A DNA stretch of 50,689 nucleotides from a virus (taxonomy: Duplodnaviria; Caudoviricetes): IMG/VR virus record IMGVR_UViG_3300017766_002899, positions 1-50,689 of that record. The stretch is one strand, 5' to 3'. The translations under genes and the position numbers were made by a program. Positions within the stretch are counted from its first letter, which is position 1; the number at the start of each line of letters is the position of its first letter. Positions 11,219 to 50,689 of the stretch are shown one piece after another. The notes beneath the pieces are model-generated. The model was given only the letters and a program-made list of their open reading frames with translations, was not told the origin of the DNA and did no database searches.

Positions 11219-11221
11219 GGC

Positions 11222-12814: not shown

Positions 12815-12815
12815 G

Positions 12816-14243: not shown

Positions 14244-15066
14244 GGGCCTTTTCGCGGAGGTTCTTAACGACGGTTTGCTTTTCGCCCTGGTATTCGGAGC
14301 GGTCCTTTACGGTCGCGGTCGCAAAAACGCGGTCCCCTTCGACGCGGCCCGAACCCGTGAACCACACCACAAGGGCGCCGTCGTCGGTGCGAATTTTGTT
14401 CAACCACCGGTCCGGGTCATAGCGGTCAACGCCGCGGTAAACGCAGCGGACGAGTTCCACGACGCCGACGACGGCCACGCGCTCACCGACCGCGCCCAGG
14501 TGGAACGAGGCGGCTTTGCGGGCGGGCTCGCCTTCGATCCGCTCCAGGACCCGAACGGCGGCGGCCTCTTGCTTTTCCGTAAGTTGGCCCCACTTTTCCA
14601 GGCTTTCCCGCATCTGGGCGAGAAACTCGTTTTCGGGCTGGGCGGAGAGACGGAGGTAAAGCGGGTCCGTCGCCAGCCGGGTCTTGTTGGCTTCGCGGTC
14701 CGCCGCCCACTTGGCTTGCCGGGCTTCCGCCTCCGCCTTGCGCTTGGCGGCGCGGCCCTCTCCGGCCTTGGCGCGCTTGTATTCCTTAAGGGCGCGCTTC
14801 GCCTGGACCACGATTTTTTCCGCCGGATCGTGACAATGCGCGATGCAATCACACCCGACCACGAAACGCTTACCGTCGGCGCTTTCGACCTTGAAGCAAT
14901 ACAGAATGCCTTGGCCGCAATAATTGCACGTCCCGCCCGGCTTGGAATGGCCGCCGCCCATATCATAGCGGTTTTCGTACATTCCCAGATAGCGGAAGGG
15001 CGCACGCCCCAGGCCGGAGAGTTCCCAGCGGTGGGCGCGGACGGTGGCGGGGGCGGCTTCGGTCAT
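14236..15066 (-). CDS. Hypothetical protein (Cys-rich Zn-finger-like N-terminus, coiled coil, OB-fold-like C-terminus)
   Basis: CNYC and GCDC motifs; ATG at 15066 with GGAGA RBS and its own promoter. Confidence 0.7.
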   Translation of the reverse strand: MTEAAPATVRAHRWELSGLGRAPFRYLGMYENRYDMGGGHSKPGGTCNYCGQGILYCFKVESADGKRFVVGCDCIAHCHDPAEKIVVQAKRALKEYKRAKAGEGRAAKRKAEAEARQAKWAADREANKTRLATDPLYLRLSAQPENEFLAQMRESLEKWGQLTEKQEAAAVRVLERIEGEPARKAASFHLGAVGERVAVVGVVELVRCVYRGVDRYDPDRWLNKIRTDDGALVVWFTGSGRVEGDRVFATATVKDRSEYQGEKQTVVKNLREKAPK

Positions 15067-15091
15067 GGTCTGGTCTCCAGGTCTGGAAACC

Positions 15092-15120
15092 TTATTACGG
15101 ACGTTTGACGGGGCCGTCAA
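15092..15120 (-). promoter_or_regulatory. Promoter with palindromic operator
   Basis: TTGACG-17 nt-TAATAA on the minus strand; TTGACG-GGGC-CGTCAA at 15105-15120. Confidence 0.7.
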
Positions 15121-32935: not shown

Positions 32936-33748
32936 ATGACAATGCATCCCAATAATCCCCGCCCGGAGGGCCTCACCGCCCGACAAGAGGCATTCTGTCA
33001 GGAATTCGCAAAGACCCGTTCTTTGCGGGCCGCCTATGCCGCAGCGTACAACGCGGAGGGCATGGACCCTCGCAAGGTTACGCACTTCGCCCGGGCAACT
33101 TACGACAGCCAAAACGTCAAGGCCCGGATTGCGGAACTTATCGAAGCCGGCGCCCAGGACACCGTGACCACCGTTGGCGAGGTGTTGCGCCGCTATCTGC
33201 TAATCGCGACCGCGGACCCCAACGAACTTATGAGCGTAAAGACGGGGTGTTGCCGGTACTGTCACGGCGACGCGCACGGCTACCAATGGCGGGTCCGGGA
33301 ATACGAGGAAGCCATGGACCGGGCGGACCGTATCAACGAGGAACGCCGGACGGCTGCGGACGGTCGGGCTTTCCGGGAAGAACCCTACCCGGACCCCGGC
33401 GGCGGCTTCGGGTTCGATGCGACGCGCGAGCCCCACCCGTTTTGCCCGGAGTGCCATGGGGAGGGCCTCCACCGCGTTGTGGTCAAGGACACCGACCAAC
33501 TGTCCCCCGCGGGCCGTGCGCTCTTTGGTGGGGTCAAGATGACCGCCCAGGGGCCGCAGATCATCATGGCCGACCAAGTCAAGGCGCTGGAGGCCGTGGG
33601 GCGCATCCTGGGTGCGTTCAAGGATGACAGCCCCAAAACCCTCCAGGTGGAGCTTAAGGGCATGACCCAGGTTGTGCGGACCGAGGCCAAGGACCCTCGC
33701 GAGGCCGCCCGCCTCTACCAAGATATGATCGCCGGGAAGCTGTCTTGA
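32936..33748 (+). CDS. Terminase small subunit with Zn-finger insertion
   Basis: LT.RQEAFC.E....AY..AY HTH, CRYCHG...CPECHGEG, and KALE..GR.LG.F. Confidence 0.82.
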   Translation: MTMHPNNPRPEGLTARQEAFCQEFAKTRSLRAAYAAAYNAEGMDPRKVTHFARATYDSQNVKARIAELIEAGAQDTVTTVGEVLRRYLLIATADPNELMSVKTGCCRYCHGDAHGYQWRVREYEEAMDRADRINEERRTAADGRAFREEPYPDPGGGFGFDATREPHPFCPECHGEGLHRVVVKDTDQLSPAGRALFGGVKMTAQGPQIIMADQVKALEAVGRILGAFKDDSPKTLQVELKGMTQVVRTEAKDPREAARLYQDMIAGKLS

Positions 33749-36154: not shown

Positions 36155-36514
36155 ATGTCGGACCACCCGGACACACTCGCGACCATAGCCGCCGCCGTTG
36201 TGGCGCTGGGCGTCGGCGCGTTGTCGTCGCTGGTTACGTTCCTGGTTTCCAAGAGACCCGCCCAGGCCGCGGAGGTCACGGCGGAAGCCGCTTGGCAAAC
36301 CGCCATGAATGCGGGATTTGAGGCGTTGACCCAGCAATATGAGACGGCGAACCGCGCCTTGATAGGCAAGGTGGAACACCTGGAGGGGACGGTCCGAGAC
36401 CTCGCCCAACACGTGGAAAGCCTGGAGAGTATCTTACGGGCCAATGGCCTCCCGATCCCCACGCGCCCGGTCCCGGTCAACCTCCACGGCTTACAAGTGG
36501 TCTCGCCGCAATGA
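36155..36514 (+). CDS. Membrane-anchored coiled-coil protein (lysis-associated candidate)
   Basis: One N-terminal TM segment followed by a coiled coil. Confidence 0.6.
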   Translation: MSDHPDTLATIAAAVVALGVGALSSLVTFLVSKRPAQAAEVTAEAAWQTAMNAGFEALTQQYETANRALIGKVEHLEGTVRDLAQHVESLESILRANGLPIPTRPVPVNLHGLQVVSPQ

Positions 36515-36777
36515 AGAACTATCGCACCTTGGACGCAATCGTGGTGGTCGCCTGTCTCATCATGTTGGGCGGCGTGCTTACCGCCCTCGTCTACCTGGAT
36601 ATTCCGCAACCCAACCTCCCCATTCTGTCCGGCTTGGTCGGCGCGACGCTGGGGTCCATCCTTGGCCTCTACGCCGGCGCCCGGTGGGGGAACAAAAAGA
36701 CGGACGAGCCCCACGCGCCCGGGGACGTTTCGGTAAGCCTCCAGGCGACCGCAGCGGGCCCCGATCCGGAGGGTTGA
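36511..36777 (+). CDS. Holin-like protein (2 TM)
   Basis: 88 aa, two TM segments and a charged C-terminus. Confidence 0.6.
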   Translation: MKNYRTLDAIVVVACLIMLGGVLTALVYLDIPQPNLPILSGLVGATLGSILGLYAGARWGNKKTDEPHAPGDVSVSLQATAAGPDPEG

Positions 36778-36828
36778 CGGCGGGGTCAGGCGCGGGCCAC
36801 CCTAACGGCCTCAACTGGAGCTTGACCC

Positions 36829-37062
36829 ATGCGCCTTGCCCTTGCCCTTGCCGCCGTCGCGGCCCTCGCCCTTGGTGGGTGCGCCACCAATGACAAAATG
36901 GCCGTCCTGTCCAACCTCCAGGGGTGCGAACGCCACTATAACGGCGCGGTCTCCGCCGGGGTAATGAACGCCGGCTTTACGGGGACGGTGCAAATCGACT
37001 GTCCCGCCCACAAGCCGCCGCCGCTTCCCGCGGGCCAAGAGGTCGGCGCCCCGCCGCTCTAG
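36829..37062 (+). CDS. Small lipoprotein
   Basis: Signal peptide with lipobox LGGC, two further Cys and a Pro-rich end; GGAG RBS. Confidence 0.7.
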   Translation: MRLALALAAVAALALGGCATNDKMAVLSNLQGCERHYNGAVSAGVMNAGFTGTVQIDCPAHKPPPLPAGQEVGAPPL

Positions 37063-37065
37063 CCA

Positions 37066-37542
37066 ATGTCGCGGTTCACGGACACGCGGGGCGTAGTTCT
37101 CCGCCAACTCGTCTACACCTCCGGCCACCCGATCCTCCGCGCCGACCGATCCCAATGGGTTCCGCAAGAGCCTATCCGCTGGGAAGTCGGCGCGGAGGGT
37201 TCGGGCGTCTTTGTTGAATGCCCCGTATGGAATTTTTCGGGGTGTTCGGACTGGGAACGTGAGAACTGGCGGAAGCTCCCCGGGGCGTTCGCGTCGGACC
37301 TAGGTTCGATCCCGCCGGGCGTGCGCGGGCTCCCCGCCCTGTCCCCCGACGGTCCAGGCGTCCCGGCGTTCCTCATCCACGACCTACTTTACACGACCCA
37401 CGGCTTGGGCGGCGTCTACACGCGCAAGGCCGCGGACCTGATATTGCGGGACGCGCTGGAGGCCCTTGGCGTGGGCTCCGTGCAACGCAATATCATTTAC
37501 GCCGGGGTCCGGCTTGGCGGCGGGTTTGGCTGGGGCCGGTAA
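37066..37542 (+). CDS. DUF1353-like protein
   Basis: F.SDLGSIP, IHDLLY, R..AD.I and Y.GVR.GG motifs. Confidence 0.75.
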   Translation: MSRFTDTRGVVLRQLVYTSGHPILRADRSQWVPQEPIRWEVGAEGSGVFVECPVWNFSGCSDWERENWRKLPGAFASDLGSIPPGVRGLPALSPDGPGVPAFLIHDLLYTTHGLGGVYTRKAADLILRDALEALGVGSVQRNIIYAGVRLGGGFGWGR

Positions 37543-39216
37543 ATGGCGGACGGTAGCGTTTTCATTCCGCCCGACCGCGGCGGGGCATTCAACTACATAA
37601 CGCCCGATTACACCGCCGTTTATAACGAGCGGATGCGGCGCCTTGAATGGCTCCGGGAAGACCCGGCCCGCCTGGAGACGTTGCGCGCCTACTACCGCGC
37701 GGAGGATGACCCGTCGCAACTGGGCGACCGGATCGCGGACTTTATCAACGATTGGGGAATTACGTTCGATCCGCGTAACGCGGACCTGGACCAACCCACC
37801 ATGATCCCGTTTGTATTGTTCGAACGGCAACGGGAGTGGATTAGGTATATCGTCCGCAAGTGGAAAGCGCGGGAACCTGGGATCACCGAAAAGTCCCGGG
37901 ATATGGGAATTTCTTGGCTGGCGGTCGCCTTGGGGTGTTCCCTCTGCGTATTCTTTGACGGCCTGAATATCGGTTACGGCTCGCGCCTAGTCGAGTACGT
38001 GGACAAGATCGGGTTTCCAAAGGCGCTCTTTTACAAAGCCCGCGCGTTTATGCGCTACCTCCCCGCGGAGTTCCGGGCCGGCTTTGACGAGAAACGCGAC
38101 GCCCCGCATATGCTCCTGAAATTCCCGGCCACGGGCTCCACGATGGCCGGCGAGGGCGGCGATAACATTGGCCGTGGTGATCGCGCATCCATCTATTTTG
38201 TGGACGAGGCGGCCCACCTAGAGCGCCCAATGTTGGTAGAGGCGGCGCTTTCCCAGACCACGAATTGCCAACAAGATATGTCCAGCGTTAAGGGCATGGA
38301 CAACCCGTTCGCCCAGAAGCGCCACGCCGGTAAAATTGAGGTCTTTACGTTTCACTGGCGGCAAGACCCTCGCAAAGACGATGCGTGGTACGCCAAGCAA
38401 TGCGACGAACTGGACGCCGTGGTGGTCGCCCAAGAAATCGACATCAATTACACCGCCTCCGCTACCGGTATCTTGATACCGTCCGAGTGGGTCCAGGCCG
38501 CGGTAAATGCCCACGAAAAGCTGGGCTTCGCGCCCACGGGCCGGCGCTTCGGGGCGCTGGACGTTGCGGACGAGGGCGTGGACCTCAACGCGTTCGCCCG
38601 GCGCTACGGCGTTCTCCTGGAGGACGTCACCGCCTGGAGCGGCAAGGGCGCGGACATTTTCAACACCGTAGAGCGCGCATTCATGGAGTGCGACGAAAAC
38701 GGCCTGGAGGAATGGTATTACGACGCCGACGGCCTGGGCGCGGGGGTGCGCGGGGACGCGCGGGTAATCAACGCCACCCGGGAAGAAAACGGCGTGTGGG
38801 TTTGCCGCGTGGAACCCTTCCGCGGATCGGGCCCGGTGTTCCAACCGGAAAAGCAAATTCCCACCGCGCTCGCCGGGGGCCGGGACAAAAAAGAGCGGCT
38901 CAACAAAGACTTTTTCCAGAACGCCAAGGCGCAAGCGTGGTGGTCCCTTCGCGTCCGCTTCCAACGCACGTTCCGGGCGGTCAAGGCCGGCGCGCTGGGC
39001 GATTACGAGCCCGACGACTTGATAAGCCTGGACGGCGGAATGACAGAGCTAGGCAAGCTTTGCCTGGAGCTATCGCAACCGACTTTCAGCCTCAACACCG
39101 CGGGAAAGGTGGTGGTCGATAAGGCGCCGGAGGGGACGCGGAGCCCGAACCATGCGGACGCCGTTATGATCGCCTACGCGCCGCGCAAGGGGAACTGGCT
39201 GAACTACCTTGGTTGA
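37543..39216 (+). CDS. Terminase large subunit
   Basis: Walker A KSRDMG.S, Walker B YFVDEAA, and RNase H-like LDVADEG.D, DADGLG and N.ADA. Confidence 0.93.
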   Translation: MADGSVFIPPDRGGAFNYITPDYTAVYNERMRRLEWLREDPARLETLRAYYRAEDDPSQLGDRIADFINDWGITFDPRNADLDQPTMIPFVLFERQREWIRYIVRKWKAREPGITEKSRDMGISWLAVALGCSLCVFFDGLNIGYGSRLVEYVDKIGFPKALFYKARAFMRYLPAEFRAGFDEKRDAPHMLLKFPATGSTMAGEGGDNIGRGDRASIYFVDEAAHLERPMLVEAALSQTTNCQQDMSSVKGMDNPFAQKRHAGKIEVFTFHWRQDPRKDDAWYAKQCDELDAVVVAQEIDINYTASATGILIPSEWVQAAVNAHEKLGFAPTGRRFGALDVADEGVDLNAFARRYGVLLEDVTAWSGKGADIFNTVERAFMECDENGLEEWYYDADGLGAGVRGDARVINATREENGVWVCRVEPFRGSGPVFQPEKQIPTALAGGRDKKERLNKDFFQNAKAQAWWSLRVRFQRTFRAVKAGALGDYEPDDLISLDGGMTELGKLCLELSQPTFSLNTAGKVVVDKAPEGTRSPNHADAVMIAYAPRKGNWLNYLG

Positions 39217-39270: not shown

Positions 39271-39369
39271 ATGACCTTTCTGGAAGCCCTCCGCCGCGCC
39301 TGGGCGTGGTACTGGAACGCGGTGGTTACGCCGCTCACCGACGAGGAACGGGACGATTTCGGCCTGTAG
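39271..39369 (+). CDS. 32-aa peptide with its own promoter
   Basis: GGAGA RBS; MTFLEALRRAWAWYWNAVVTPLTDEERDDFGL. Confidence 0.55.
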   Translation: MTFLEALRRAWAWYWNAVVTPLTDEERDDFGL

Positions 39370-39428
39370 ACCTTGAGGCGCGGGGGCGCTACTTTCCGCG
39401 GGAGCCATCCTTGGAAGGACCCGCCCCC

Positions 39429-40220
39429 GTGAAATCGACCCGCCTTTTCCTTGTGGCGCTCGCCGCGCTGGCCTTCGCGCCCGGCGCGGCGTTCGCACAA
39501 ACCCAGCCGATCCCCGGCGCCAAGACGGCCAGCGGCCAGCCGGCCCCCGTAACGGGCTCCGCCATCATCGTCGCCCCGGCGGGCGGCGGCGCGGGCCTGG
39601 GGACCGTCGTGGCGCGGGACTTCCCGTTGCCGATCACCTGTCCGGACGGGACGTGTTCGGGGGGCGGCGGCGGGAGCCTTAGCGCCCAAGTCACGCTGGC
39701 CGCGCCGACCTATACCGACGGGTCCAACCCACTAAGCCTGACCCGCAAGGGCGGGCTTCGCGCCACGCTCCAGACGAGCCTTGGCGCTGATATCGACTTT
39801 TCGACGCCGGTGGACTTGGTCGGGGCGGATGGCTCAACCAAGGTCACCACGACCAACCCACTCCCCCAGGCCCCCACGCCGACCGCCACGGCGGCGCTGG
39901 GCATTGCCCCGGTCAGTACGTCCGCGGCGGCGGCCTGTCTCGTCCTCAAGGCCAGCGCCGGCAACTTCTATTCCGCCAGCGGCTATGTGGACGCCGCGAG
40001 TTTCATCATGATTTTCGACGCCGCGTCGGCGCCGGCGGACGGAGCCGTGACCCCCAAGGCGTGGGCGTATGTCCCGGCGCTGGGAACGTGGTCCGTCATC
40101 ATGCCCGGCGGCATTCCGGCGGCCATGGCGACCGGGGCGACCGTGTGTCGGTCCTCGTCCGGCCCCTACTCCAAAACGGGCGTGTCCTCAAATACGGCCA
40201 TCACGGGGTTTGCTAAATGA
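39429..40220 (+). CDS. Signal-peptide-bearing spike/decoration-like protein
   Basis: GTG at 39429 with AAGGA RBS; MKSTRLFLVALAALAFAPGAAFA-Q; beta-rich C-terminal domain. Confidence 0.7.
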   Translation: MKSTRLFLVALAALAFAPGAAFAQTQPIPGAKTASGQPAPVTGSAIIVAPAGGGAGLGTVVARDFPLPITCPDGTCSGGGGGSLSAQVTLAAPTYTDGSNPLSLTRKGGLRATLQTSLGADIDFSTPVDLVGADGSTKVTTTNPLPQAPTPTATAALGIAPVSTSAAAACLVLKASAGNFYSASGYVDAASFIMIFDAASAPADGAVTPKAWAYVPALGTWSVIMPGGIPAAMATGATVCRSSSGPYSKTGVSSNTAITGFAK

Positions 40221-41032
40221 GCCGCTTTCTCGCCCTCTTTGCCGCGGCGCTTTTCGCGCTCGCGCCGGTCCTCGCGACCGCCCAGGATATCCGCGTTCCC
40301 GTCGCCTCTGGCGGTGGCGGCTCATTCGATCCGGCCATTCCGGGGCCCATCGGCGGGACCACGCCCGCGGCGGGGACGTTTACGACCCTTGTGGGCAACA
40401 CGTCCATTTCGTCGCCCGGCAACATCACCACGACGTCCACGGGTTCGATCACGTCCAACACTTCCATAACAGCGACCACGGATATCAACCTGGGGACGCT
40501 CAATAAGATCGCGTGGGCGACCCGAACCCGAATTGGCGCCCCGGGCGTTAATGGCGCGTTTTCCATCGAAAACAGTACGGGGAGCGTTGGCTTTACTATA
40601 GGGATCGGCGCGGTAACCGGAATTATGAACCTGGGCGGCGTCAACGCCGCCGCGCCCGGCGCAACTATCCTCGCCCAAGCCGGTTGCCGGGCGGGAACGG
40701 ACAGCAATTGCGCCGCGCCGGACCTCACCATCCAGAACGGCGTAACGACGGGGACGGCGACCGCGCCGGGCATCGTGTTCAAGACCCAGGCCGCCGCGGT
40801 CGGGTCGGGCTCCACCGCGCAAACCTTGGTGACTAGCTTCACCATCAAAGGCGGCGTTCCTGTCCGCCCGGCCTATGCGGCGGCCTCTTTGCCGGCGTGC
40901 GGCGCGGCCACTACGGGCGGCATGGCCTGGGTCACCGACGCGAACGCTACCACCTTCCTTTCCACGGTCGCGGGCGGTGGGGCCAACAAGGTCCCGGTTT
41001 CGTGCGACGGGACTAACTGGGTAATCGGGTAA
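40217..41032 (+). CDS. Signal-peptide-bearing fibre-like protein
   Basis: MSRFLALFAAALFALAPVLATA-Q; IGGTTPAAGTFT repeat-like segment; C-terminal fibre-type knob LP....G..AWVTD...DGTNW. Confidence 0.7.
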   Translation: MSRFLALFAAALFALAPVLATAQDIRVPVASGGGGSFDPAIPGPIGGTTPAAGTFTTLVGNTSISSPGNITTTSTGSITSNTSITATTDINLGTLNKIAWATRTRIGAPGVNGAFSIENSTGSVGFTIGIGAVTGIMNLGGVNAAAPGATILAQAGCRAGTDSNCAAPDLTIQNGVTTGTATAPGIVFKTQAAAVGSGSTAQTLVTSFTIKGGVPVRPAYAAASLPACGAATTGGMAWVTDANATTFLSTVAGGGANKVPVSCDGTNWVIG

Positions 41033-41035
41033 GCC

Positions 41036-43573
41036 ATGCTCAAAATCTCCTGGCCGATCTTCCGCGGCGTGACCGCGAAGGCGAATGCGCGCGTCTCGGA
41101 GGGGGCTCCGGAGGCTTTCACCAAAGCCGCCCAGGCGGTGCAAGTGGAGGTTCCCCAGCCCGTCGGGCTCCTGGAGCGAGCCCAGCGCACCGTGGCCGCC
41201 CTCGCGGAGAAAGCTCCGCGCAAGGCGAAACCCAAGGTCACGGAAAAAGAGTGGCGCGACCGTCGCGGGTCTCTCGCCCCCATGGCCCGCCGGGCGTTCC
41301 TCGCCGGCGCCGTCGGGCTCACCGTTACGGCCATGGCCCAAGACCAAGCCGGGGCCGCCAGCGCCGGACGCCTCCGCTTCGCACGGCCCATGGCCGCGCC
41401 GCCGTCGGGGCTCTTGTTCCCCTCTGCGTCCTGGGATGGGACCGCCGGAAGTGGGTTCTCGCCCGCCCAGTTGGTGGCGCTAGAAGACCCGATCCGGACC
41501 GGCCCTAAGATGATCCTCCGCCCGCTCCAGCCTCCGGAAGTGGCGTTTACAGAGGACCACACCCTGGTTGCGTCGGCGGCCAGTTTCGACGGCGTGGATA
41601 CGGTCGAAATTTGGTGCGAAGGAAACTACGTCGCCCAAGCCAACCGCGGCTGGTTTGATGACGTCGCCCCCGACGGTTCCACTTTCCAGCGGTACGGCTT
41701 CGGGGCCACGCTGGACCATTCCGTAATTCAAGCTTTTGGATTTGCGGAAGGGGCAATGCATATCTATTTCAAAGCCCCCACCCCCGCGGGAAGCACGATC
41801 CAACCCCGGGTCATGGGCCCGTATCTCTACTATGCCCGCAACCCCGGCGTCGGCGCTGGGTGCGAGTATGACTTTTCGGTTTTCGTGAAGCCGGGCGCGA
41901 CGACGCAGCCGGGCATTCGTTACCCCACCATCGTCTCCGCGCTCCTGTATTGCTCGCAACAAAGTAAGTTGCGGCCCCGTCTCGTCCTGGAGGACACGGC
42001 CCGCTATACGACCGCCGGTAATATCGCGGCGGCGGCGCATACGGGGAGTATGTGGTGGACGCTGGAGCCCGCCGCGGGCGTCACGGCGACGCTAGGGAAC
42101 TGGGATATTAACGACACGGTCGGAACGTCCTGGTATTGCGACAACCTCCATTTTAAGGGCGACATAGTTTTGGAGCTTGCGGCCATGGCTCCCCGTATGG
42201 GGTCCATGTATCGCGGTTGGAGCGGCGGCCAAAATAAGCTTTGGATAGACGGTTGCGAGGTTACCGGCGGGTCTTACGTCGGGTCCGGGTACGCGGGCGG
42301 CCTCGGATCGGGACAAGACATTTCCTATTACGGAGCGGTCCAAGCGAGCTATTTCTTCAATCGCAATAATACCAACCCGTTCAATTTCTATTTTACGCAT
42401 ATGTATATGCACGATCTACCCGGGTACATGATTGATAGTTCTCTATTGATCCTCAATTGTGACGTTGCCCGATGCTCCGGAACGGCCATCGAAAACAATT
42501 TTGGGGCAATCCACGGGTTGCGGGTTTCTGAGGTCGGCGGCATCCAGTCCGGGGCCCGGAGTTTTGTTGAGGTCTTCCGGCTTTCCTACACCGGCCCCGC
42601 GGCCTTGGCGCAATTCAACAAGTCTACCGCAAACGGTCGGGCCACATATTCCGGTTCCCCCACCGTCTACCCGCTAACTTTCTGGGAAGATAACGTAAAG
42701 GTCGGGGAAATTTACACGGTCCCGCCGGGTTCCTCCGGCTATACGACCATGCAAATTCTCGTAAACTACATCAATAGCTTGCCCGGCTGGACGGCTACGG
42801 CCACCGGGGGCGCACGGGATATGGCGTGGGGCGCGGAATATATTTCCGTTGCCGATATGGTGCCATCCGCGGGTGTTGGTATCCCCGGGGAAAGCGGCCA
42901 GCCATTCAGCAAACGCACGATCACGAGCACGCCGCTAAGCATGTGTCGAATTGCCGACGTCCACGCCAACGGTTTGACCTGGGATGGGGCGTTGCTCGCG
43001 CAAAACGTGACCGTCGAATTTGTCGAAGGGTTCAACATCACGTCCGCCGCCCACATGGGCGCGAGTACGGTAAAAGACTTCTGCGCGCGGTGGTGTACTT
43101 TCCAAGACACGTCCGCCGCGTACCAAATCGCCCACCCGACACACAACCCCGTCGTGGGGGCGCAAGCGAGCATTTACGGGGGGACGAGCAATCACTTCCT
43201 CGTCTCTGCGGTCACTTACGAGGGCCCAGGCCAGCAAGTGTTGACGCAATCCGCGACGGTCATGGATGCGAAATCCCGCATTGCGCGCTCCATTTTCGAA
43301 GTTCTGTCCATCAATAACGTCGCCAACCGCCCGGGGCTTAACGGTGTGGTGCTGCGGACCGGGGCGCTTCCCTCCGGCGCCGACGCCCTGTCAAAAACGC
43401 TCGCCGGCGCCTATACGGAGACGTTCCTTTTTGCGGACCCGTTCGGCGCGATCCCGTCATATGACCCCGTCGCCACCCAACTCCAGTTGAGTGACGGGAC
43501 GTGGGCCGGCGCTCGCCTCCCGGCGGTCCTCCACTCGCCCGCCAACAATGGGTGGAACTTGGCCGCCGCGTAA
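41036..43573 (+). CDS. Large tailspike/depolymerase-like protein with twin-arginine-like segment
   Basis: 845 aa; YPTI.SAL cap followed by a Gly/Asn/aromatic-rich beta-helix-like region; RRAFLAG plus hydrophobic stretch near residue 85. Confidence 0.6.
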   Translation: MLKISWPIFRGVTAKANARVSEGAPEAFTKAAQAVQVEVPQPVGLLERAQRTVAALAEKAPRKAKPKVTEKEWRDRRGSLAPMARRAFLAGAVGLTVTAMAQDQAGAASAGRLRFARPMAAPPSGLLFPSASWDGTAGSGFSPAQLVALEDPIRTGPKMILRPLQPPEVAFTEDHTLVASAASFDGVDTVEIWCEGNYVAQANRGWFDDVAPDGSTFQRYGFGATLDHSVIQAFGFAEGAMHIYFKAPTPAGSTIQPRVMGPYLYYARNPGVGAGCEYDFSVFVKPGATTQPGIRYPTIVSALLYCSQQSKLRPRLVLEDTARYTTAGNIAAAAHTGSMWWTLEPAAGVTATLGNWDINDTVGTSWYCDNLHFKGDIVLELAAMAPRMGSMYRGWSGGQNKLWIDGCEVTGGSYVGSGYAGGLGSGQDISYYGAVQASYFFNRNNTNPFNFYFTHMYMHDLPGYMIDSSLLILNCDVARCSGTAIENNFGAIHGLRVSEVGGIQSGARSFVEVFRLSYTGPAALAQFNKSTANGRATYSGSPTVYPLTFWEDNVKVGEIYTVPPGSSGYTTMQILVNYINSLPGWTATATGGARDMAWGAEYISVADMVPSAGVGIPGESGQPFSKRTITSTPLSMCRIADVHANGLTWDGALLAQNVTVEFVEGFNITSAAHMGASTVKDFCARWCTFQDTSAAYQIAHPTHNPVVGAQASIYGGTSNHFLVSAVTYEGPGQQVLTQSATVMDAKSRIARSIFEVLSINNVANRPGLNGVVLRTGALPSGADALSKTLAGAYTETFLFADPFGAIPSYDPVATQLQLSDGTWAGARLPAVLHSPANNGWNLAAA

Positions 43574-43574
43574 C

Positions 43575-43590
43575 TTGACGGGGGCGTCAA
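43575..43590 (+). promoter_or_regulatory. Promoter/operator copy
   Basis: TTGACG-GGGG-CGTCAA. Confidence 0.65.
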
Positions 43591-43629
43591 ACTAGCGCAT
43601 GGGTGGGGCCGTAATTTGGAGCCCCACCC

Positions 43630-44364
43630 ATGACCGCCCTTTTCATCACCGCCGGCCAGTCAAACGCGCTGGGTTACGGGCTCACCGCCGCGGACGTTCC
43701 GGCCCACCTCGTTCTCCCCAACCCCAGCGCCTACATTTTCGACGGGACGAACTGGGGCCAACTCCGCCCAGGCGTGAACACCGGGACGCCGGCCAACCCG
43801 CAAGCGTGGGGCCCGGAGGCCGAATTGGCTTACCGCTACGGCCTGGACCACCCGGGCGAAGTCCTCTTGATCGTCAAGAGCGCCAAGGGGTCCACGGGTC
43901 TCGCCGCCGACGGGGACCGGCTGGATTGGTCGCCGGACAGCGCGGGGGAGCTTTTCGACTTCACCGACGCCCGGATTGACGCGGCGCGGGCGGCATTCAC
44001 CGCGGCGACCGGGGAGGCCGCGCCCGGCGTGTCGGCGGCCTTCTGGATGCAAGGCGAGCAAGACGCGACCAACGCGGCGGACGCCGGCGCCTACGCCACC
44101 AACCTCGCGCACTTCCTTGAGGCGGTCCGGCTGGAGTGGATGGACAACCCCGCCGGCTACATCGGTCTTGGCCGGATCGGGGACAGCCCCGGGCTTGCCT
44201 ACGCCGCGGAGGTCCGGGTGGCGCAATGGTCGGTGGACCAAGCGGACGCCAGCGCGGAAAGCTTCAAAACGATAGGTTACGGGCTCCAGTCGGACGGCCT
44301 CCACTATGACGCCGCCGGCCAAACGTCGCTGGGCGGGGCGTTCTATGACGCGTGGGCATTCTAG
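43630..44364 (+). CDS. Carbohydrate acetylesterase (SASA/CE6-type SGNH)
   Basis: AGQSNA, GPE, K.A.G.T, WMQGE.D and DGLHY motifs. Confidence 0.85.
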   Translation: MTALFITAGQSNALGYGLTAADVPAHLVLPNPSAYIFDGTNWGQLRPGVNTGTPANPQAWGPEAELAYRYGLDHPGEVLLIVKSAKGSTGLAADGDRLDWSPDSAGELFDFTDARIDAARAAFTAATGEAAPGVSAAFWMQGEQDATNAADAGAYATNLAHFLEAVRLEWMDNPAGYIGLGRIGDSPGLAYAAEVRVAQWSVDQADASAESFKTIGYGLQSDGLHYDAAGQTSLGGAFYDAWAF

Positions 44365-44407
44365 CCGCCCTTGACCGCCCCCGGCCCGGGCGGGCATTGT
44401 CCCCCGC

Positions 44408-46411
44408 ATGATCCGGTCATTTTTGCTGCGTTGGCTCTTTGGGACCACGGCCCTTGCTTCGGAGCAAGACGCGCCGCGAAGTCCCCTTTTTTCCACGCAC
44501 CTCCGGGTGGTCCCGGCGCGGCAAGAGACCGCGGAGAAACTCGCCCAGCGATACAAGCTCCCCCAGGCGGAAGGGGTTGGCGCGGTTGCCATGGATGCGG
44601 CAAACGGCGGCCTGGGGCTTAAGGGCTTCGCGGACGCCGACCTAGGGGACGCGCTCTTTGCGTGGTACGCCGCTCAAGGCTTTATCGGCTACCAACTCGC
44701 GGGCATCCTCGCCCAGCATTGGTTGATTGACAAAGCTTGTTCCATGCCGGGCCGCGACGCGATCCGCAACGGCTTTGAGGTCATGCTAACCGGCCCGACC
44801 ACGCCGGAGCATACCGAGGCGATCAAGAAAGCGAACAAGCGGTTCCGCCTAAACCGCCAGATGCAAGAATTCGTCCATATGGGGCGCGTCTTTGGCGTCC
44901 GGGTCGCAATTTTCAAGGTCAAGAGTTCCGACCCGAAATACTATGAGCGCCCGTTCAATATCGACGGCGTGGCCCCGGGATCATACCAAGGGATCGTCCA
45001 GGTGGACCCCTATTGGTGTACGCCCCAACTGGATATGGCCGCGGTGGCGGACCCGGCCAGCCCGGAATTTTACGAACCGACTTGGTGGTTTATCAACGGG
45101 GTTCGCTACCATCGCTCACACGTGGCGATCTTCCGGACGTCCCAGCCGGCGGACTTCCTCAAGCCGTCGTATTTCTACGGCGGAATTCCGGTCCCGCAAC
45201 AAATCATGGAGCGCGTTTACGGCGCCGAACGGTCCGCGAACGAGGGCCCGCAACTCCTGATGACAAAGCGTCTTATGACCTGGGGAACGGATATGTCCCA
45301 GGTCTTGGCGAACCAAGAGAAATTCAGCGAGCATATGCGGAACTTTACCGCGCTCCGCGACAATTTCGGCGTTCACGTCCACGATGCAGACGACACGATG
45401 CAGCAATTCGACACGGCGCTTGGCGACGTGGACGCCGTGACGCTTGCCCAATATCAGCTAGTGGCCGCCGGCGCCCGCGTCCCGCTTACGAAACTCCTGG
45501 GGACCTCGCCCCAAGGCGGCCTGGGATCGAACGGAGAGTACGAGGAAACCTCTTACCATGAGCATCTAGAAGACATTCAGGAGAACGACCTTACGCCGTT
45601 CCTGGAGCGCCACTTGGAACTTGTGGTGCGGTCCGAAGTCGAACCCAAGTTTCAGATGGAGCCGGGGACGCTGGAGCCGCACGTGGACTGGAACCCGGTG
45701 GACAGCCCATCGGCGGAAGAACTCGCCAAGCGCAACAAGGACAAGGCGGACGCGGATACGGCGTTGGTCACCATCGGCGCAATTGACGCCGTGGACGTCC
45801 GCAACCGCATTCGCACCGAACGAGACAGCGGCTATTTCGGTATCCAGGACGTTCCGGAAATGGGCGACCCGCTGGCGGAACTGGAGGCGGCCACCCAGGA
45901 GCTTGAGGCGTTGGCCGGCGGCGAGGACCCGCTAGAGGCGGCAACCGCGGCCCTTACCGGCGGAGCCGATCCGCTGGGCGCCGCGACCAAGGCGCTAACC
46001 CATAGCCCGTTGGAAACCGCAATTGCGGCCCTTAGCGGCCAAGACGGTTTCGACCTCCCGACCGCCGCCGGTGTGATCCTGACCCGGGCTAACGGGGACG
46101 TGCTTTGGCTCAAGCGTTCCGATCAAGAGGAAAACGAGCCCGGGAAATGGGGATGGCCCGGCGGTCGGATCGACCACGGCGAGAAACCCCAAGACGCCGC
46201 CATCCGGGAACTTCTGGAGGAAACCGGGATAGACTACGGGGCCCCCATAATCCCCGTGGGCATGGACGGAACCTATATCGTCTTCGCCGCGGTCTCCGTG
46301 GCGGCTCTGGACGTCCGCCTCAACTCGGAACACGTGGACTTTGCGTGGCGGCCCCTTAGCGACCCGCCCAGGCCGCTACACCGGGGGGTTAAGGCGTTCT
46401 TGAATGGCTAA
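44408..46411 (+). CDS. Portal protein (DUF1073-like) fused to a C-terminal Nudix hydrolase
   Basis: Portal motifs FIGYQ...Q.W, RVFG and VP.TKLLG.SP.G; complete Nudix box G-RIDHG-E-KPQDAAI-RELLEETGI. Confidence 0.9.
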   Translation: MIRSFLLRWLFGTTALASEQDAPRSPLFSTHLRVVPARQETAEKLAQRYKLPQAEGVGAVAMDAANGGLGLKGFADADLGDALFAWYAAQGFIGYQLAGILAQHWLIDKACSMPGRDAIRNGFEVMLTGPTTPEHTEAIKKANKRFRLNRQMQEFVHMGRVFGVRVAIFKVKSSDPKYYERPFNIDGVAPGSYQGIVQVDPYWCTPQLDMAAVADPASPEFYEPTWWFINGVRYHRSHVAIFRTSQPADFLKPSYFYGGIPVPQQIMERVYGAERSANEGPQLLMTKRLMTWGTDMSQVLANQEKFSEHMRNFTALRDNFGVHVHDADDTMQQFDTALGDVDAVTLAQYQLVAAGARVPLTKLLGTSPQGGLGSNGEYEETSYHEHLEDIQENDLTPFLERHLELVVRSEVEPKFQMEPGTLEPHVDWNPVDSPSAEELAKRNKDKADADTALVTIGAIDAVDVRNRIRTERDSGYFGIQDVPEMGDPLAELEAATQELEALAGGEDPLEAATAALTGGADPLGAATKALTHSPLETAIAALSGQDGFDLPTAAGVILTRANGDVLWLKRSDQEENEPGKWGWPGGRIDHGEKPQDAAIRELLEETGIDYGAPIIPVGMDGTYIVFAAVSVAALDVRLNSEHVDFAWRPLSDPPRPLHRGVKAFLNG

Positions 46412-47270
46412 GCGCGTCCCACTTACGCGGAAGCGGAAAGACTGGGCGGAAAAGCGGGGCGGTGCGACCTTCTGGGGCCACGCGCTGAATTACCCGGAGC
46501 GCGCGGAAAGCCGGTATCGCTCCGAACTGGAGCGCGCAATTTCGCTTATGCTCGCGGAGACCTCAAAGGGCGTCGCCCAGGTTTGGCGCGCGAACGCCCC
46601 GGCGGTTACGAGCGGCATGGACGCGTCTTTGGCGTCTCAAGCCCGCATCTTGACCAACGCAATGTCCCGTAAGTTCCAGGCGTTCTTTGACAAGCTCGCG
46701 CCTGGGCTCGCGAAACGCATGGCCGCCCAGGTCGCGGGGGCGAGTAAGGCCGGCTTGCATTCCAGCCTCAAGGAAGCGTCCGGCGGCTTGTCGCTGCAAA
46801 CGTCCGTAATCGACGGGCGCATTGCGGAAATCACCAAGGCGTCCGTTGCGGAAAACGTGGCGCTCATAAAGTCCATCCCCCAGAAGTATTTTACGGACCT
46901 CCAGGGCGCCGTTATGCGCTCTATTCAAAAGGGCGACGGGCTCCAGACCGTGTTGGAAGCCGTGACCAAAACGGGCGAGGTCACCAAGCGCCGGGCAACG
47001 CTGATAGCGACCGACCAAACGCGCAAGCTCACCACGTCCGTAAACGCGGCCCGGATGCAGAACCTAGGAATTCGAAAATTCGAATGGTTGCACTCCGCGG
47101 GCGGTAAAGAGCCCAGGCCGCTACATAAGAACGTCTTGAATGGTCAAATTTTCGACCTCGACAATCCGCCCGTTATTGACGAAAACACGGGGGAACGGGG
47201 ATTGCCCGGGCAACTCATTAATTGCCGGTGTAGGATGATCCCGGTAATTGACTTCGGGACAGACAAGTGA
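46404..47270 (+). CDS. MuF/SPP1 gp7-like head morphogenesis protein
   Basis: LIKSI, RA.LIA.DQT.K, W.HS....R..H and PGQLINCRC motifs. Confidence 0.88.
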
Positions 47271-48490
47271 GCGCGCGGCGACACGACGTAAACGGGTGGT
47301 TTGAGGTAGAGCGCAACCCGCTGTCCAAAGCCGGCGTGTTCCCCTACCTGGGTCGCCAGATCGGGGCCCCGGGGCCCAACCGCCTCTATTACGTGCTGCG
47401 TCCCGCGGAGGAACTTGGGTCCGCCGAAACCGTGGCCTCGTTTCGTCTCATGCCGTTTGTGGACGAACACGCCATGTTAGGGTCCGAAGACGACGGGCTC
47501 ACCCCGGCGGAAGAAAAGGGCGTCCATGGGGTGATCGGGGAGCGCGTCTTTTTCGACCCCACGGACGGCGTCCTTTACGGGAACCTCAAGGTTTGGTCGG
47601 AAAAACTGGCCGCCGATATTTCGGGCGGTAAAAAACAACTATCCGCGGGCTACCGGTGTGTTTACGATTTCACACCGGGAGCCTACAACGGCGAACGATA
47701 CGACGCGGTCCAGCGCGTAATGCGGGGAAACCACTTGGCGCTTGTAGAGCGCGGGAGGATGGGCCCTGAGGTTGCGGTGTTGGATCAATTCGCAATGGAC
47801 ATGAAGGACGCGACACCGATGGACCCCGAACTGATGCAAAAAGTTCTCGCGGCGCTGCAAGCCGCCGTCGTCGCGGTCCAAGGGGCCATGGGCGGCGGGG
47901 GTGGCGACACCACGAACGGGGACACCAATTCGGGCGCGGGCGGCGACACGGTCGCCGGTGAAGCCGGCAAGGACACGGTCACCGGCGACGGCGCCGCGGA
48001 CACCGTGGGCGGCGGCGACGGAAACGACACCATTTCAGGCGGGGACGGAAACGACACCGCCAGCGGCAAGGACGGAGATATGACCATGTCCGGTAACGAC
48101 ACCACTTCGGGCGGCAACGCTCAAGACGCCCTCACCACCGACGAGCGCGCCGAACTCAACCGGCTTCGCGCCGCGGCCAAGACGCCGGCCCCGGTGGGCA
48201 TGGATGAAACCGCCATGGTCCAGACCTTCGCCAAGCGCGACGCGCTGGCCGACCGGCTCAAGGGCCACGTGGGGACCTTCGACCACGCCGGGATGACGCT
48301 GGCGGAAGTCGCCGCCTACGGTGTCGCGAAGCTGGGGCTCACCGACGTCCCGAAGGGCCAAGAGGTGGTGGCGCTGGACGTCGCCCTCCAGGCCAAGGGC
48401 TCGCCCTCCGGCCCCGTGGTCACGGGTGCCCAGGACGTCGCCGCGCGCGAAACTTTCGTCCAGAAGCATCTGGCCGGCTCCGCGGCGTAA
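47267..48490 (+). CDS. Prohead protease/scaffold (DUF2213-like)
   Basis: GVFPY, SF...P..DEH, LSAGY and NHLALV..GR.G motifs, then a low-complexity scaffold. Confidence 0.85.
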
Positions 48491-48522
48491 CCCGACCACC
48501 CCACGAACAAGGACCCCCGCCA

Positions 48523-49092
48523 ATGTCTTTCCAATCCTCTGTCCTCGCCCAGATCGGCGCCGGCGTCATTGGCGAACTCGCCTTTGATGGCCCGTTCCGC
48601 GGTCAACCGGCCATCGTCCATTCCGCCGACGCGGCCAATAACGTCGTCGGTCGCGCCTTCACGATCACGTCCGGCGCCACCGGTTCGTGGCAAGCGGGCT
48701 CCGCCGGTGCGGCCAACCCCGCCGCCATCAAGGTCGCCGCGGGCGGCGCTGGCGTCTTCGCCGGCATCCTCGCGAACCCCAAGGTCTACGCCCTGGTCGG
48801 AACCGCCGTCGGCGGCCCGCTGGCGCCGTCGCTGGCCGTTCCCAACGATATCGCCGTGGAACTGGTCACCGAGGGGGACATTTTCGTGGCGCTGGGCGCC
48901 GCCTCCGCGCCGGGTGACGTGGTGTGGTATCTGGAGGCTACGGGCGTTCTCGTCACGTCCGCCCCGGGCGCCGCGCAACCGGCCCTGACCGGAGACTATC
49001 CCATCGGGACGGTCCAGCGGTTCACGGACGCCGCCGCGTCCATCGCGGTCATTCACGTTTCGCCTTACGTCCCGATCCCTCCGGCGGCGTAA
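48523..49092 (+). CDS. Capsid decoration/cement protein
   Basis: Lies between protease and MCP; FQ..V....G..GE, FAGIL and G..FV motifs. Confidence 0.7.
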   Translation: MSFQSSVLAQIGAGVIGELAFDGPFRGQPAIVHSADAANNVVGRAFTITSGATGSWQAGSAGAANPAAIKVAAGGAGVFAGILANPKVYALVGTAVGGPLAPSLAVPNDIAVELVTEGDIFVALGAASAPGDVVWYLEATGVLVTSAPGAAQPALTGDYPIGTVQRFTDAAASIAVIHVSPYVPIPPAA

Positions 49093-49178
49093 CTCCAATC
49101 GGGCGGTGAGCGCGCACCGCCCATTCTTTCAATCGGCTAGGCTGGGACCCGCCAAGGCTCATCAAAGGGGATTTAACC

Positions 49179-50291
49179 ATGGCCCTCCGGCCCTCCGAAA
49201 TTCATTCCAGCATTGCGGGCCGTGACGTTCGCCCCGTGGTGATGACCGCCGCCGACGTGTCGGACTATCTGGAGCTTCGCACTCTGGGTATCGACCTGGA
49301 TGAGCGGATCGTCCGCCAGATGATCGTGGGGCTAGACGCCGCCCCCGACCTCCAGCCCACGGTGTACGGCTCCACGTCCGTAACCCCGATCCAGTTTCTC
49401 CAATCGTGGCTCCCGGGTTTCGTCTCCGCGATCACCCAGGTCCGGGCCATTGATGACCTCATCGGCATCACGACCGCCGGGGACTGGGAGGATGAGGAAA
49501 TCGTCCAGGGCGTGATGGAGCCCACCGGCCTCGCCCAGCTTTACGGGGACTATACCAGCGTCCCCTTGGCGTCCTGGAACCTGACTTTCGAGCGCCGGAC
49601 CATCGTTCGGTTCGAGGAAGGGATGCAAGTGGGCGTCCTGGAGGAAGCTCGCGCGTCCAAGGTCCGCGTGGCCTCCGCCGCCCGCAAGCGCGCCTCCGCC
49701 ACGCTCGCGCTGGACATTCAGCGCAACCGCGTCGGGTTCTACGGCTACAACTCCGGGCCGGGCCGGACCTACGGGTTCCTCAACGATCCGTCGCTTCCCG
49801 CCTACGTGAACGTCCCGAACGGCGCCGGCGGCTCGCCCCTCTGGGCGAACAAGACGTTCCTGGAAATCACCGCCGACATTCGTTCGGCGTTCGGCGCCCT
49901 GATCGTCCAGGCCGGCGGCCTCGTCAAGAACTCCGACAAGGTCACGCTCGCGCTCCCGCTGGGCTCGGACAACTATCTGTCCGTGACGTCGGAGTTCGGC
50001 AACTCGGTCCGCACGTGGCTCAAGGACACGTATCCCAATATGCGGGTGGTGACCGCTCCGGAACTGGCCGCGGCCAACGGCGGCGTGAATGTGTTCTATC
50101 TCTACGCCGACAGCGTCCAGGACGGCGACAGCGACGACGGCGGCCAAACTTGGCTCCAGATCGTCCCGACCAAGTTCAAGACGCTGGGCGTGGAGAAACG
50201 CGCCAAGAACTACCTGGAGGACTATGCCAACGCGACCGCGGGCGTTATGCTGAAGCGGCCCTTCGCGGTGGTGCGGCGCTCCGGTATCTGA
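49179..50291 (+). CDS. Major capsid protein (DUF2184-like)
   Basis: 370 aa; G.W.D, YGD, N..GFYG, YGFLNDP.LP, W..KT..EI..DI and G...KRP.A motifs. Confidence 0.9.
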   Translation: MALRPSEIHSSIAGRDVRPVVMTAADVSDYLELRTLGIDLDERIVRQMIVGLDAAPDLQPTVYGSTSVTPIQFLQSWLPGFVSAITQVRAIDDLIGITTAGDWEDEEIVQGVMEPTGLAQLYGDYTSVPLASWNLTFERRTIVRFEEGMQVGVLEEARASKVRVASAARKRASATLALDIQRNRVGFYGYNSGPGRTYGFLNDPSLPAYVNVPNGAGGSPLWANKTFLEITADIRSAFGALIVQAGGLVKNSDKVTLALPLGSDNYLSVTSEFGNSVRTWLKDTYPNMRVVTAPELAAANGGVNVFYLYADSVQDGDSDDGGQTWLQIVPTKFKTLGVEKRAKNYLEDYANATAGVMLKRPFAVVRRSGI

Positions 50292-50319
50292 CCCCACGGG
50301 GAACCGGCGACACGAACCG

Positions 50320-50350
50320 AGGCGCGGGGCGACAACCCCGCGCCTTTTTC
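50320..50350 (+). terminator. Intrinsic terminator after the MCP gene
   Basis: AGGCGCGGGG / CCCCGCGCCT stem followed by TTTT. Confidence 0.8.
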
Positions 50351-50372
50351 GTGCGCGCCTGGAGAGGACCAA

Positions 50373-50689
50373 ATGAGCAAAAAATTCATCTATTCGACCC
50401 TGACCGCCGACAACATTTACGCCGGCTATGCCAAGGGCGGCGCGGATATTCCGATTGTGGCCCACCAAGTCCACATCAAGGGCGGCGCCAACGTCGCGGA
50501 CCGCCGGCTCATCACGCCGCGCGGCGTGGTGACCGAGGTCACGGACGCCGATTTCGATTTCCTCATGGAGAATTCCGTTTTCCAGATGCACGTGGAAAAC
50601 GGTTATATCTCTTTCAGCGATCGCAAAGAGGACCCCGAAGTGGCCGCCGCCGATATGGAGGGTCGCGACCAAGCGTCCCCGCTGGTCCC
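50373..50689 (+). CDS. 5' part of the head-associated hypothetical protein (continues to 235)
   Basis: GAGGA RBS and ATG at 50373; IKGGANVA and TPRGVVT motifs. Confidence 0.8.
   Translation, partial: MSKKFIYSTLTADNIYAGYAKGGADIPIVAHQVHIKGGANVADRRLITPRGVVTEVTDADFDFLMENSVFQMHVENGYISFSDRKEDPEVAAADMEGRDQASPLV
50567..50689. repeat. Direct repeat of the window start
   Basis: Identical to bases 1-123. Confidence 0.95.

Follow-up and report, generated by a model that had tools for sequence, protein, structure and literature searches.

To our knowledge, the known tailspikes of tailed phages lack export signals, their assembly taking place in the cytoplasm. Virion proteins with signal peptides occur in the filamentous phages, where pIII and pVIII both bear them and pIII is disulfide-bonded in the periplasm; we know of no tailed phage with signal-peptide-borne virion proteins of this kind. 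Exported phage proteins also include Llp of T5, Bor of lambda and Cor, and some accessory proteins of this kind mask receptors. Here we describe a locus in a complete, 50,689-base virus record with ~65% G+C (IMG/VR record IMGVR_UViG_3300017766_002899, positions 1 to 50,689; the window) in which three consecutive open reading frames (ORFs) between the terL and portal genes, ORF1, ORF2 and ORF3, encode relatives of fibre and spike proteins with predicted Sec-type or Tat (twin-arginine translocation) signals. We propose, with a rough probability of 0.45, that ORF1–3 and a neighbouring SASA esterase form a late-expressed, exported module that binds and degrades envelope glycans of the infected cell.

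According to PMC12309495, lambda Lom is encoded between the tail-spike and fibre genes. The endolysin Lys44 of Oenococcus phage fOg44 is described in PMC6116005 as made late in the lytic cycle with a typical Sec signal and as building up outside the membrane before the cell lyses. Pantoea stewartii WceF (PDB 6tgf) is presented in PMC7949094 as a bacterial, Tat-signalled, trimeric tailspike-like depolymerase of the cell's own exopolysaccharide (EPS). The features of the window locus are as follows.

37543–39216, + strand: terL (terminase large subunit), upstream flank; phrog_2, E = 9.4e-22
39429–40220, + strand: ORF1, 263 residues; Sec-type signal, then a conserved N-terminal stretch and a C-terminal domain of ~100 residues
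40217–41032, + strand: ORF2, 271 residues; Sec-type signal, Gly/Thr-rich fibre-like body and a C-terminal knob of ~55 residues
41036–43573, + strand: ORF3; Tat-type signal, β-rich N-terminal domain and β-helix
41036–41281, + strand: N-terminal extension of ORF3, 82 codons before the twin-arginine signal; frame open in relatives, weakly conserved
41282–41338, + strand: Tat-type signal of ORF3, M83 to A101, with AMA before the likely cleavage site; GRLRFARP follows
41399–43573, + strand: mature body of ORF3; conserved β-rich N-terminal domain at residues ~122–272, right-handed parallel β-helix at ~272–842
43630–44364, + strand: SASA/SGNH-type carbohydrate acetylesterase, 244 residues; PF03629, E = 1.3e-19
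44408–46411, + strand: portal with C-terminal NUDIX domain, downstream flank; PF06381, E = 4.6e-81; PF00293, E = 1.7e-17, residues 551–653

Predicted export signals of ORF1, ORF2 and ORF3

Export signals were called by a heuristic of our own together with conservation across homologues, not by SignalP or TatP. For a Sec signal the heuristic takes an n-region with basic residues, ~10–15 uncharged hydrophobic residues as the h-region and small residues at positions −3 and −1. ORF1 starts at GTG 39429, with GGAAGGA 8 nucleotides upstream, and opens with MKSTRLFLVALAALAFAPGAAFA followed by QTQPIP; residues 1–23 (nucleotides 39429–39497) form the predicted signal, with basic K2 and R5, the h-region LFLVALAALAFA and AFA before Q. 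The ORF2 start codon, ATG 40217, overlaps the ORF1 stop (ATGA). Its N-terminus, MSRFLALFAAALFALAPVLATA followed by QDIRVP, holds a signal at residues 1–22 (nucleotides 40217–40282) with basic R3, the h-region FLALFAAALFAL and ATA before Q. When 51 proteins of the genome were ranked by N-terminal hydrophobicity, the top five were a holin-like protein, ORF1 (second), ORF2 (third) and two spanin-like proteins. No lipobox (L-x-x-C) was found at the cleavage sites of ORF1–3, the sole nearby one belonging to the spanin-like ORF at 36829–37062, and none of the three has an outer-membrane β-barrel signature.

The mature parts of ORF1 and ORF2 each contain exactly four Cys residues and the signals contain none. 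These are Cys-71, -76, -170 and -240 in ORF1 and Cys-157, -165, -228 and -263 in ORF2, where Cys-228 and Cys-263 lie in the knob and Cys-157 and Cys-165 form a second pair. A first-pass annotation, made from the DNA alone, had called the two Sec signals and the four Cys residues of each mature protein, and we arrive at the same result. It had also allowed that the true starts might lie downstream of the hydrophobic segments; this is not so for ORF1 and ORF2, in which the conserved reading frames include the signals.

ORF1 has 15 homologues besides the query, nearly all of which open with a signal-like peptide. An IMG/VR scan with the conserved C-terminal domain of ORF1 returned 69 loci and, once deduplicated, 63 target ORFs. 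A strict version of the signal heuristic was passed by 49 of these 63 compared with 67 of 730 other coding-like ORFs at the same loci (odds ratio 35), a signal frequency about eight times background; because the heuristic is author-made, the control set crude and the sequences related, the p-value of this comparison overstates the case. A Cys pair conserved in the domain is present in 41 of the 49 signal-bearing IMG/VR members and in none of the 14 signal-less ones. The window ORF1 lacks that family pair and has other Cys residues instead. Minimal members of the family (L072, L006, L019 and L032) consist only of a signal and a domain of ~60–100 residues. No Pfam, PHROG or NCBIfam model matches the ORF1 family, and its C-terminal domain is a virus-specific family. 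ESM Atlas searches with ORF1 and P0149 gave only unnamed viral clusters, the nearest of which are 87–100% viral, and structural TM-scores were below 0.3. In L006, L036 and L058, three unrelated 60-kb viral contigs, a protein with two transmembrane segments (84–134 residues, ending in VNIIVRRK or similar) is encoded upstream of the ORF1-family gene, and in L036 and L058 a protein of 700–1000 residues is encoded upstream of that conserved protein in turn.

For ORF2, 127 homologous proteins were found at E ≤ 1e-3, most of which match only the last ~20% of the query (~55 residues). This knob has the alignment motif LPx[AC]...VTDA...GGG...PV..DGTNW, and most proteins that share it have the N-termini of ordinary signal-less tail fibres. 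In the close relatives P0015–19, P0025 and P0029 a signal is retained in diverged form, and AQDIRVP comes after it. The knob motif pattern could be located in 54 of 120 listed relatives, 10 flagged as signal-bearing and 44 unflagged; a knob Cys pair (LPxC...VSCDG) is present in 7 of the 10 flagged proteins and in none of the 44 unflagged. Two of the three flagged proteins without the pair, P0022 and P0055, are apparently false calls of the heuristic. Further signal-bearing knob genes in L006, L011, L036, L058 and L072 have the pair in five of five cases; in L006, L036, L058 and L072 the gene immediately preceding them is of the ORF1 family, and two of the five encode little beyond signal and knob.

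The earlier description of ORF2 as a fibre with a knob stands as regards the C-terminal domain, which is common to tail-fibre-like proteins; the monomer model is too poor to bear out the rest. The AlphaFold2 (AF2) model of the ORF2 monomer has a mean predicted local distance difference test score (pLDDT) of 61.9 and is confident only at residues ~205–271. A Foldseek search of the PDB with this model returned nothing at E ≤ 1e-3; its best-ranked, weak matches are to the T4 gp34 fibre. Neither Pfam nor PHROG nor NCBIfam contains a model for the knob family. A predicted complex of the ORF1 C-terminal domain (residues 140–263) with the ORF2 knob (residues 195–271) scored 0.00, which is not evidence either way. 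When the window was compared with 50,697 deposited phage records there was no match to its DNA and no protein match for ORF1, ORF3 or the proteins P0140 and P0243. The sole match in these records was to the ORF2 knob: gp12 of the Burkholderia phage BcepF1 (L005, 4665–5279), the only knob relative from a cultured phage, a signal-less hypothetical protein of 204 residues whose gene sits among small non-structural genes near the left genome end.

The signals keep their n/h/c architecture while their sequences diverge, which counts against their being non-functional. Cys pairs found only in the signal-bearing members of two unrelated families are what would be expected if those members fold in an oxidising compartment, and this covariation is the strongest indirect evidence for export. 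From the sequences, ORF1–3 are very probably exported. Export had been proposed in the first-pass annotation, and as a prediction it gains from signals conserved in diverged homologues of all three proteins and from Cys pairs covarying with signals in two families.

The export signal of ORF3 would be of a different type. Tat signals have the consensus (S/T)-R-R-x-F-L-K, a weakly hydrophobic h-region and an AxA c-region. ORF3, which starts at 41036, 3 nucleotides past the ORF2 stop, contains M83-ARRAFLAGAVGLTVTAMA followed by QDQ, with A-R-R-A-F-L-A, the stretch GAVGLTVTAMA and AMA before Q. It alone among the 51 genome proteins has twin arginines followed by a hydrophobic stretch. The twin arginines begin at residue 85 of the longest frame or at residue 3 if translation starts at the in-frame ATG 41282, upstream of which there is no clear Shine-Dalgarno sequence; both the ARRAFLAG motif and this ATG had been pointed out before and are present as described. 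The distance from the first start to the motif is 82–95 residues in the window, L001, P0003 and P0004, and in each of these four the extension has an uninterrupted frame, its indels being in frame. The window extension has a coding-like G+C by codon position (0.72/0.52/0.82). Relative to L001, 32 of its 82 residues are identical and the differences by codon position are 40/42/58, compared with 13/7/32 over the next 48 residues. The ORF3 product may be the long form, the short form or both.

A profile search found 422 representatives of the ORF3 family at E ≤ 1e-3, most of them signal-less and resembling virion proteins. Twin arginines followed by an uncharged hydrophobic stretch occur in 18 of 161 readable family proteins, among which P0217 is doubtful, while the pattern failed to catch P0286. 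In 15 of the 18 the signal lies at residues 3–30 and is followed by RLR(F/M)xR, the extreme N-terminus of signal-less members, so the Tat signal is a recurrent add-on to this family. A bacterial protein encoded in L002 (MSGFGFG...) and many family members of ~690 residues open with the odd motif MxGFGFGFG. Twin-arginine-like N-termini were also seen in a phage ORF at L012 11833–12570 (MDRLILPRRKFLLAAPALVL) and in one of the genome G002 at 24606–25094 (within L090), where MNLSRRFFLGGAISLVAV is followed by IYGDGVHDDTAG; this G002 gene has the portal region on one side and the scaffold and coat genes on the other.

The β-helix of ORF3 and the adjacent SASA esterase

An AF2 model of ORF3 from M83, built with 57 aligned relatives, has a pLDDT of 90.7 and a predicted template-modelling score of 0.90, the first 37 residues being disordered. 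Model residues ~190–760 form a right-handed parallel β-helix. In a structural comparison 161 of 999 chains matched at Z ≥ 8, led by AlgE6 (5lw3; Z 16.8, root mean square deviation (rmsd) 3.1, 299 residues aligned) and AlgE4 (Z 16.7), followed by PL6 lyases (Z ~16), RbmB (15.9) and WceF (13.9); the tailspikes of Sf6 and CBA120 gave Z 15.3–15.7. The top Foldseek match was the Klebsiella phage depolymerase Depo32 (E = 7.9e-5), and viral tail-fibre and spike models came top in BFVD. The β-helix depolymerase shape suggested earlier is therefore borne out as a fold; the modelled fold leaves the substrate of ORF3 unnamed. Pfam, PHROG and NCBIfam have no model for ORF3, a single weak PHROG row at E = 0.016 aside. 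A sequence search of the PDB with the profiles A3 and A2 gave no match at E ≤ 1, and the profiles A1 and A8 returned nothing useful from metagenome contigs or viral contigs.

The gene that follows ORF3 encodes a SASA esterase (PF03629, 71.2 bits against a cut-off of 24.8) that has neither a signal peptide nor Cys residues. The same order of ORF3-like gene, SASA gene and portal gene is found in L004, a phage contig whose head genes are 61–82% identical to those of the window. In L002, a contig from a bacterial metagenome-assembled genome, an ORF3-family region and a SASA domain (residues 877–1125, E = 1.2e-16) are fused in one protein of 1667 residues (9614–14617), whose neighbours, read without a family search, are an O-antigen-polymerase-like membrane protein, a glycosyltransferase and a sulfotransferase-like protein. 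Adjacency in the window and L004 together with fusion in L002 would give ORF3 and the esterase a common substrate, an acetylated polysaccharide, and on this gene-order and fusion evidence the esterase is likely the functional partner of ORF3. Signal-less partners can be exported together with a Tat substrate by hitch-hiking, and co-export of the esterase with folded ORF3 through Tat is possible. The portal relative in L004 has 533 residues, matches only residues 1–542 of the window portal and apparently lacks the NUDIX domain.

Possible roles of the exported proteins

ORF1–3 would derive from tail-fibre and tailspike families whose ordinary members are signal-less. ORF1 and ORF2 would cross the inner membrane unfolded via Sec, lose their signals and form disulfides in the periplasm; ORF3 would fold in the cytoplasm and leave via Tat. 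Together with the signal-less esterase they would constitute a late accessory module, co-transcribed with the late genes, whose target would be polysaccharide in the envelope of the infected, Gram-negative host. In such a module ORF3 would be a β-helix enzyme that cleaves or modifies glycans, possibly alongside the esterase as deacetylase, and ORF1 and ORF2 would be disulfide-stabilised binding proteins. The likely benefit is that receptors would be destroyed or masked and capsule or EPS removed, which would exclude superinfection, cost fewer progeny to debris and ease release. The phage's possession of other fibres, unrelated to ORF1–3, the minimal family members and the enzyme-pair look of ORF3 and the esterase favour such envelope factors. 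Remodelling of the infected cell surface was one of two functional readings offered in the first-pass annotation and fits the data best of the two, given the ORF3 β-helix, the SASA fusion in a polysaccharide locus and the phage's own signal-less fibres.

Those fibres belong to a complete contractile tail, and the tail genes of the window identify the phage as a myovirus with a tail of the E217/PB1 type. The relevant genes outside the locus are listed here.

1524–2069: gateway protein, gp29-like
2083–3570: sheath, DUF3383
4672–6675: tape measure
7543–8403: hub, gp41
9360–10565: Baseplate_J
10562–11218: DUF2612
11222–12814: tail-fibre gene, signal-less
ending at 14243 (longest form 12558–14243): Gly-rich protein, signal-less
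32936–33748: small terminase

The fibre genes at 11222–14243 adjoin the baseplate genes, and because the phage has tail fibres of its own the virion would not need the module. The tail-fibre ORF overlaps the longest form of the Gly-rich ORF by 257 nucleotides, and the true start of the latter is probably further downstream than 12558. The phage encodes a DNA polymerase, a Gp2.5-like single-stranded DNA-binding protein (SSB), an exonuclease, a helicase, a primase and a methyltransferase, and no integrase was found among ten further window proteins scanned, which makes late lytic expression likelier than lysogenic conversion. ORF1–3 and the SASA gene, four genes on one strand between terL and portal, are packed tightly in the late operon, with 4-nucleotide overlaps and gaps of 3–56 nucleotides. 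A scan for promoters and terminators showed no excess over shuffled sequence and no promoter-like site on the strand of these genes.

Directly upstream of terL lies a lysis-like cassette (36155–37542). It encodes a 119-residue protein with an N-terminal transmembrane segment, an 88-residue holin-like protein with two such segments, a 77-residue lipoprotein with an LALGGC lipobox (these within 36155–37062) and a DUF1353 protein (37066–37542) that stops where terL starts; no endolysin was recognised in the cassette. A spanin-type cassette with such a lipoprotein points to a diderm host. A 32-codon ORF (MTFLEALRRAWAWYW..., 39272–39370) preceded by GGAGA lies inside the 212-nucleotide gap between terL and ORF1.

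Several observations weigh against an envelope module and bring up its strongest competitor, that the exported proteins are receptor-binding appendages matured outside the cytoplasm and mounted on the virion at lysis, on the tail more likely than the capsid. After cleavage ORF2 and ORF3 would begin just as do relatives that have no signal and are presumably virion-bound: the predicted ORF2 cleavage falls ~10 residues before FDPAxPGxIGGTTP, the opening motif of the signal-less P0020, P0023, P0068 and P0073, and cleaved ORF3 starts at or near GRLRFAR, matching the N-terminal RLK/RLR motif of its signal-less relatives. L001 and L003 are sister podovirus contigs, near-identical by eye in the first 60 residues of terL and portal, yet at the same spot upstream of terL the former has a signal-bearing cassette of ORF2 and ORF3 and the latter signal-less proteins. 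Two related P22-like podoviruses, G001 (58,164 bases, CheckV 100%) and G002 (54,037 bases, 95%), have signals on every recognised fibre-like protein. The protein at the tailspike position is signal-bearing in both (751 residues in G001, where it matches Phage Tail Collar, PF07484, and tail PHROGs, and 1005 residues in G002), and just upstream of terL are five to six further signal-bearing proteins, one of which matches tail-fibre PHROGs (E = 6.6e-24). No signal-less fibre was recognised in either genome from crude gene calls, in which one may have been missed, 6 of 10 scanned proteins having no tail or connector PHROG match and 4 no match at all; the pattern in these two genomes is a lead and not a finding. 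Taken together, the matching N-termini, the L001/L003 exchange and the G001/G002 signals are better explained by a role on the virion.

The phage's own fibres, moreover, share no domain with ORF1–3, which leaves masking of its own receptor with its own tip unsupported. The esterase has no signal, so that if ORF3 is periplasmic the esterase must hitch-hike or act elsewhere. Finally, the 82 codons before the ORF3 twin arginines would, if translated, make an unusual Tat signal.

The 207- and 399-residue proteins of L003 were considered as signal-less homologues of ORF1 and ORF2 and rejected, there being no BLASTP similarity; the idea that the phage exports duplicates of its fibre tips in the form of ORF1–3 was likewise rejected for want of similarity to the products of 11222–14243 (BLASTP and family hidden Markov models). 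The signal-bearing runs of G001 (42822–50480, reverse-complement coordinates) and G002 (11622–17400), with proteins of 141–760 residues, also contain small signal-less proteins related to the 183- and 167-residue proteins of L003.

Mounting on the virion would also suit ORF1 and its nearest relatives, which combine a conserved N-terminal part with differing C-terminal domains, as in receptor-binding proteins, and P22 heads accept purified tailspikes in vitro. Against it stand the fibre genes that the window phage already has beside its baseplate genes, the minimal members of ~60–100 residues plus signal, which are hard to see as appendages, and the lack of relatives of ORF1 and ORF3 in the deposited phage records; the support from G001 and G002 is also reduced by their crude gene calls. 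We regard assembly on the virion as possible but rather doubtful. Docking on capsids, as first proposed, finds no support at all, and the idea of joining the particle at lysis survives only in a weaker form, with tails the likelier site, for which the matching N-termini and the G001/G002 signals speak. A full-text literature search, its results consisting mostly of titles and abstract openings, found no description of Sec or Tat signals on tailed-phage fibre or spike proteins. That some tailed phages route fibres and spikes via Sec or Tat, mature them with disulfides in the periplasm and mount them at lysis, as a widespread and undescribed route, strikes us as unlikely; while periplasmic, such proteins may already strip or mask receptors. 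The three window genes would then be one case of this route, and the P22-like genomes with signals on all recognisable fibre proteins would be others.

A further alternative is that the genes are host-directed morons without a lytic role, encoding exported adhesins or enzymes that alter the surface of a carrier or lysogenic cell in the manner of lambda Lom and Bor or Cor and Llp. Signal-bearing genes among structural genes are a known pattern (Lom), ORF1-family genes occur at varied positions near terL and portal in unrelated phages, as mobile cassettes do, and the BcepF1 knob protein is encoded in a non-structural region. The replication genes of the window phage (polymerase, primase, helicase, SSB and exonuclease), the absence of an integrase among the proteins scanned, the tight packing in the late operon with no promoter-like site on the module strand, and the lack of lipobox and β-barrel signature all argue otherwise, and we give this explanation little credence. 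It is equally improbable that the hydrophobic N-termini are buried assembly helices or annotation artefacts of cytoplasmic, structural proteins: the twin-arginine motif is indeed internal in the longest ORF3 frame and its h-region only ~15 residues long, but the retained n/h/c architecture, the eightfold excess of signals in the ORF1 family and the confinement of Cys pairs to signal-bearing members of two families speak against it.

Comparison with known systems

Fibres and tailspikes are assumed to be cytoplasmic products, and yet the window and dozens of contigs from uncultured phages encode homologues with Sec- or Tat-type signals and matching disulfide signatures, a pattern that extends far beyond the window. 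If these proteins act on the envelope, they would represent a strategy in which receptors are destroyed or masked by binding proteins of the sort that the phage itself uses, much as viral envelope proteins interfere with receptors. Should they be carried on virions, they would define a new assembly route for tailed phages, with consequences for predicting host range, engineering phages and interpreting virion proteomes. In either case a cellular location is proposed for three unannotated families, namely the ORF1 domain, the signal-bearing knob clade and the ORF3 family with its 422 representatives, and ORF3 and the SASA esterase form a candidate depolymerase/deacetylase pair.

Among exported phage proteins, Lom, Bor, Llp and Cor resemble ORF1–3 in being encoded among structural genes. 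They are small lipoproteins or β-barrels unrelated to virion proteins, whereas ORF1–3 are fibre or spike homologues without a lipobox, one of them with a Tat-type signal. Lys44 shares with ORF1 and ORF2 a Sec signal on a phage protein; unlike ORF1–3 it is a peptidoglycan hydrolase of a phage of Gram-positive bacteria and has no relation to fibres or spikes. The inoviruses, with pIII and pVIII, assemble at the membrane without lysis, which no tailed phage is known to do.

By fold, ORF3 is like the tailspikes of Sf6 and CBA120 (TSP2/3) and the Klebsiella depolymerase Depo32, and its family is mostly signal-less; the known tailspikes differ from it in having no export signal. The nearest described analogue of ORF3 would be WceF, to which the model is likened by fold, without being placed in the WceF family. 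Both have a twin-arginine signal before a tailspike-type β-helix (6tgf_F: Z 13.9, rmsd 3.4, 241 residues), and other β-helix enzymes outscore WceF against ORF3 (Z up to 16.8). WceF is chromosomal, belongs to an EPS synthesis cluster and has its signal of 28 residues at the extreme N-terminus, whereas ORF3 is phage-encoded, has 82 codons before its twin-arginine motif and has a different N-terminal domain.

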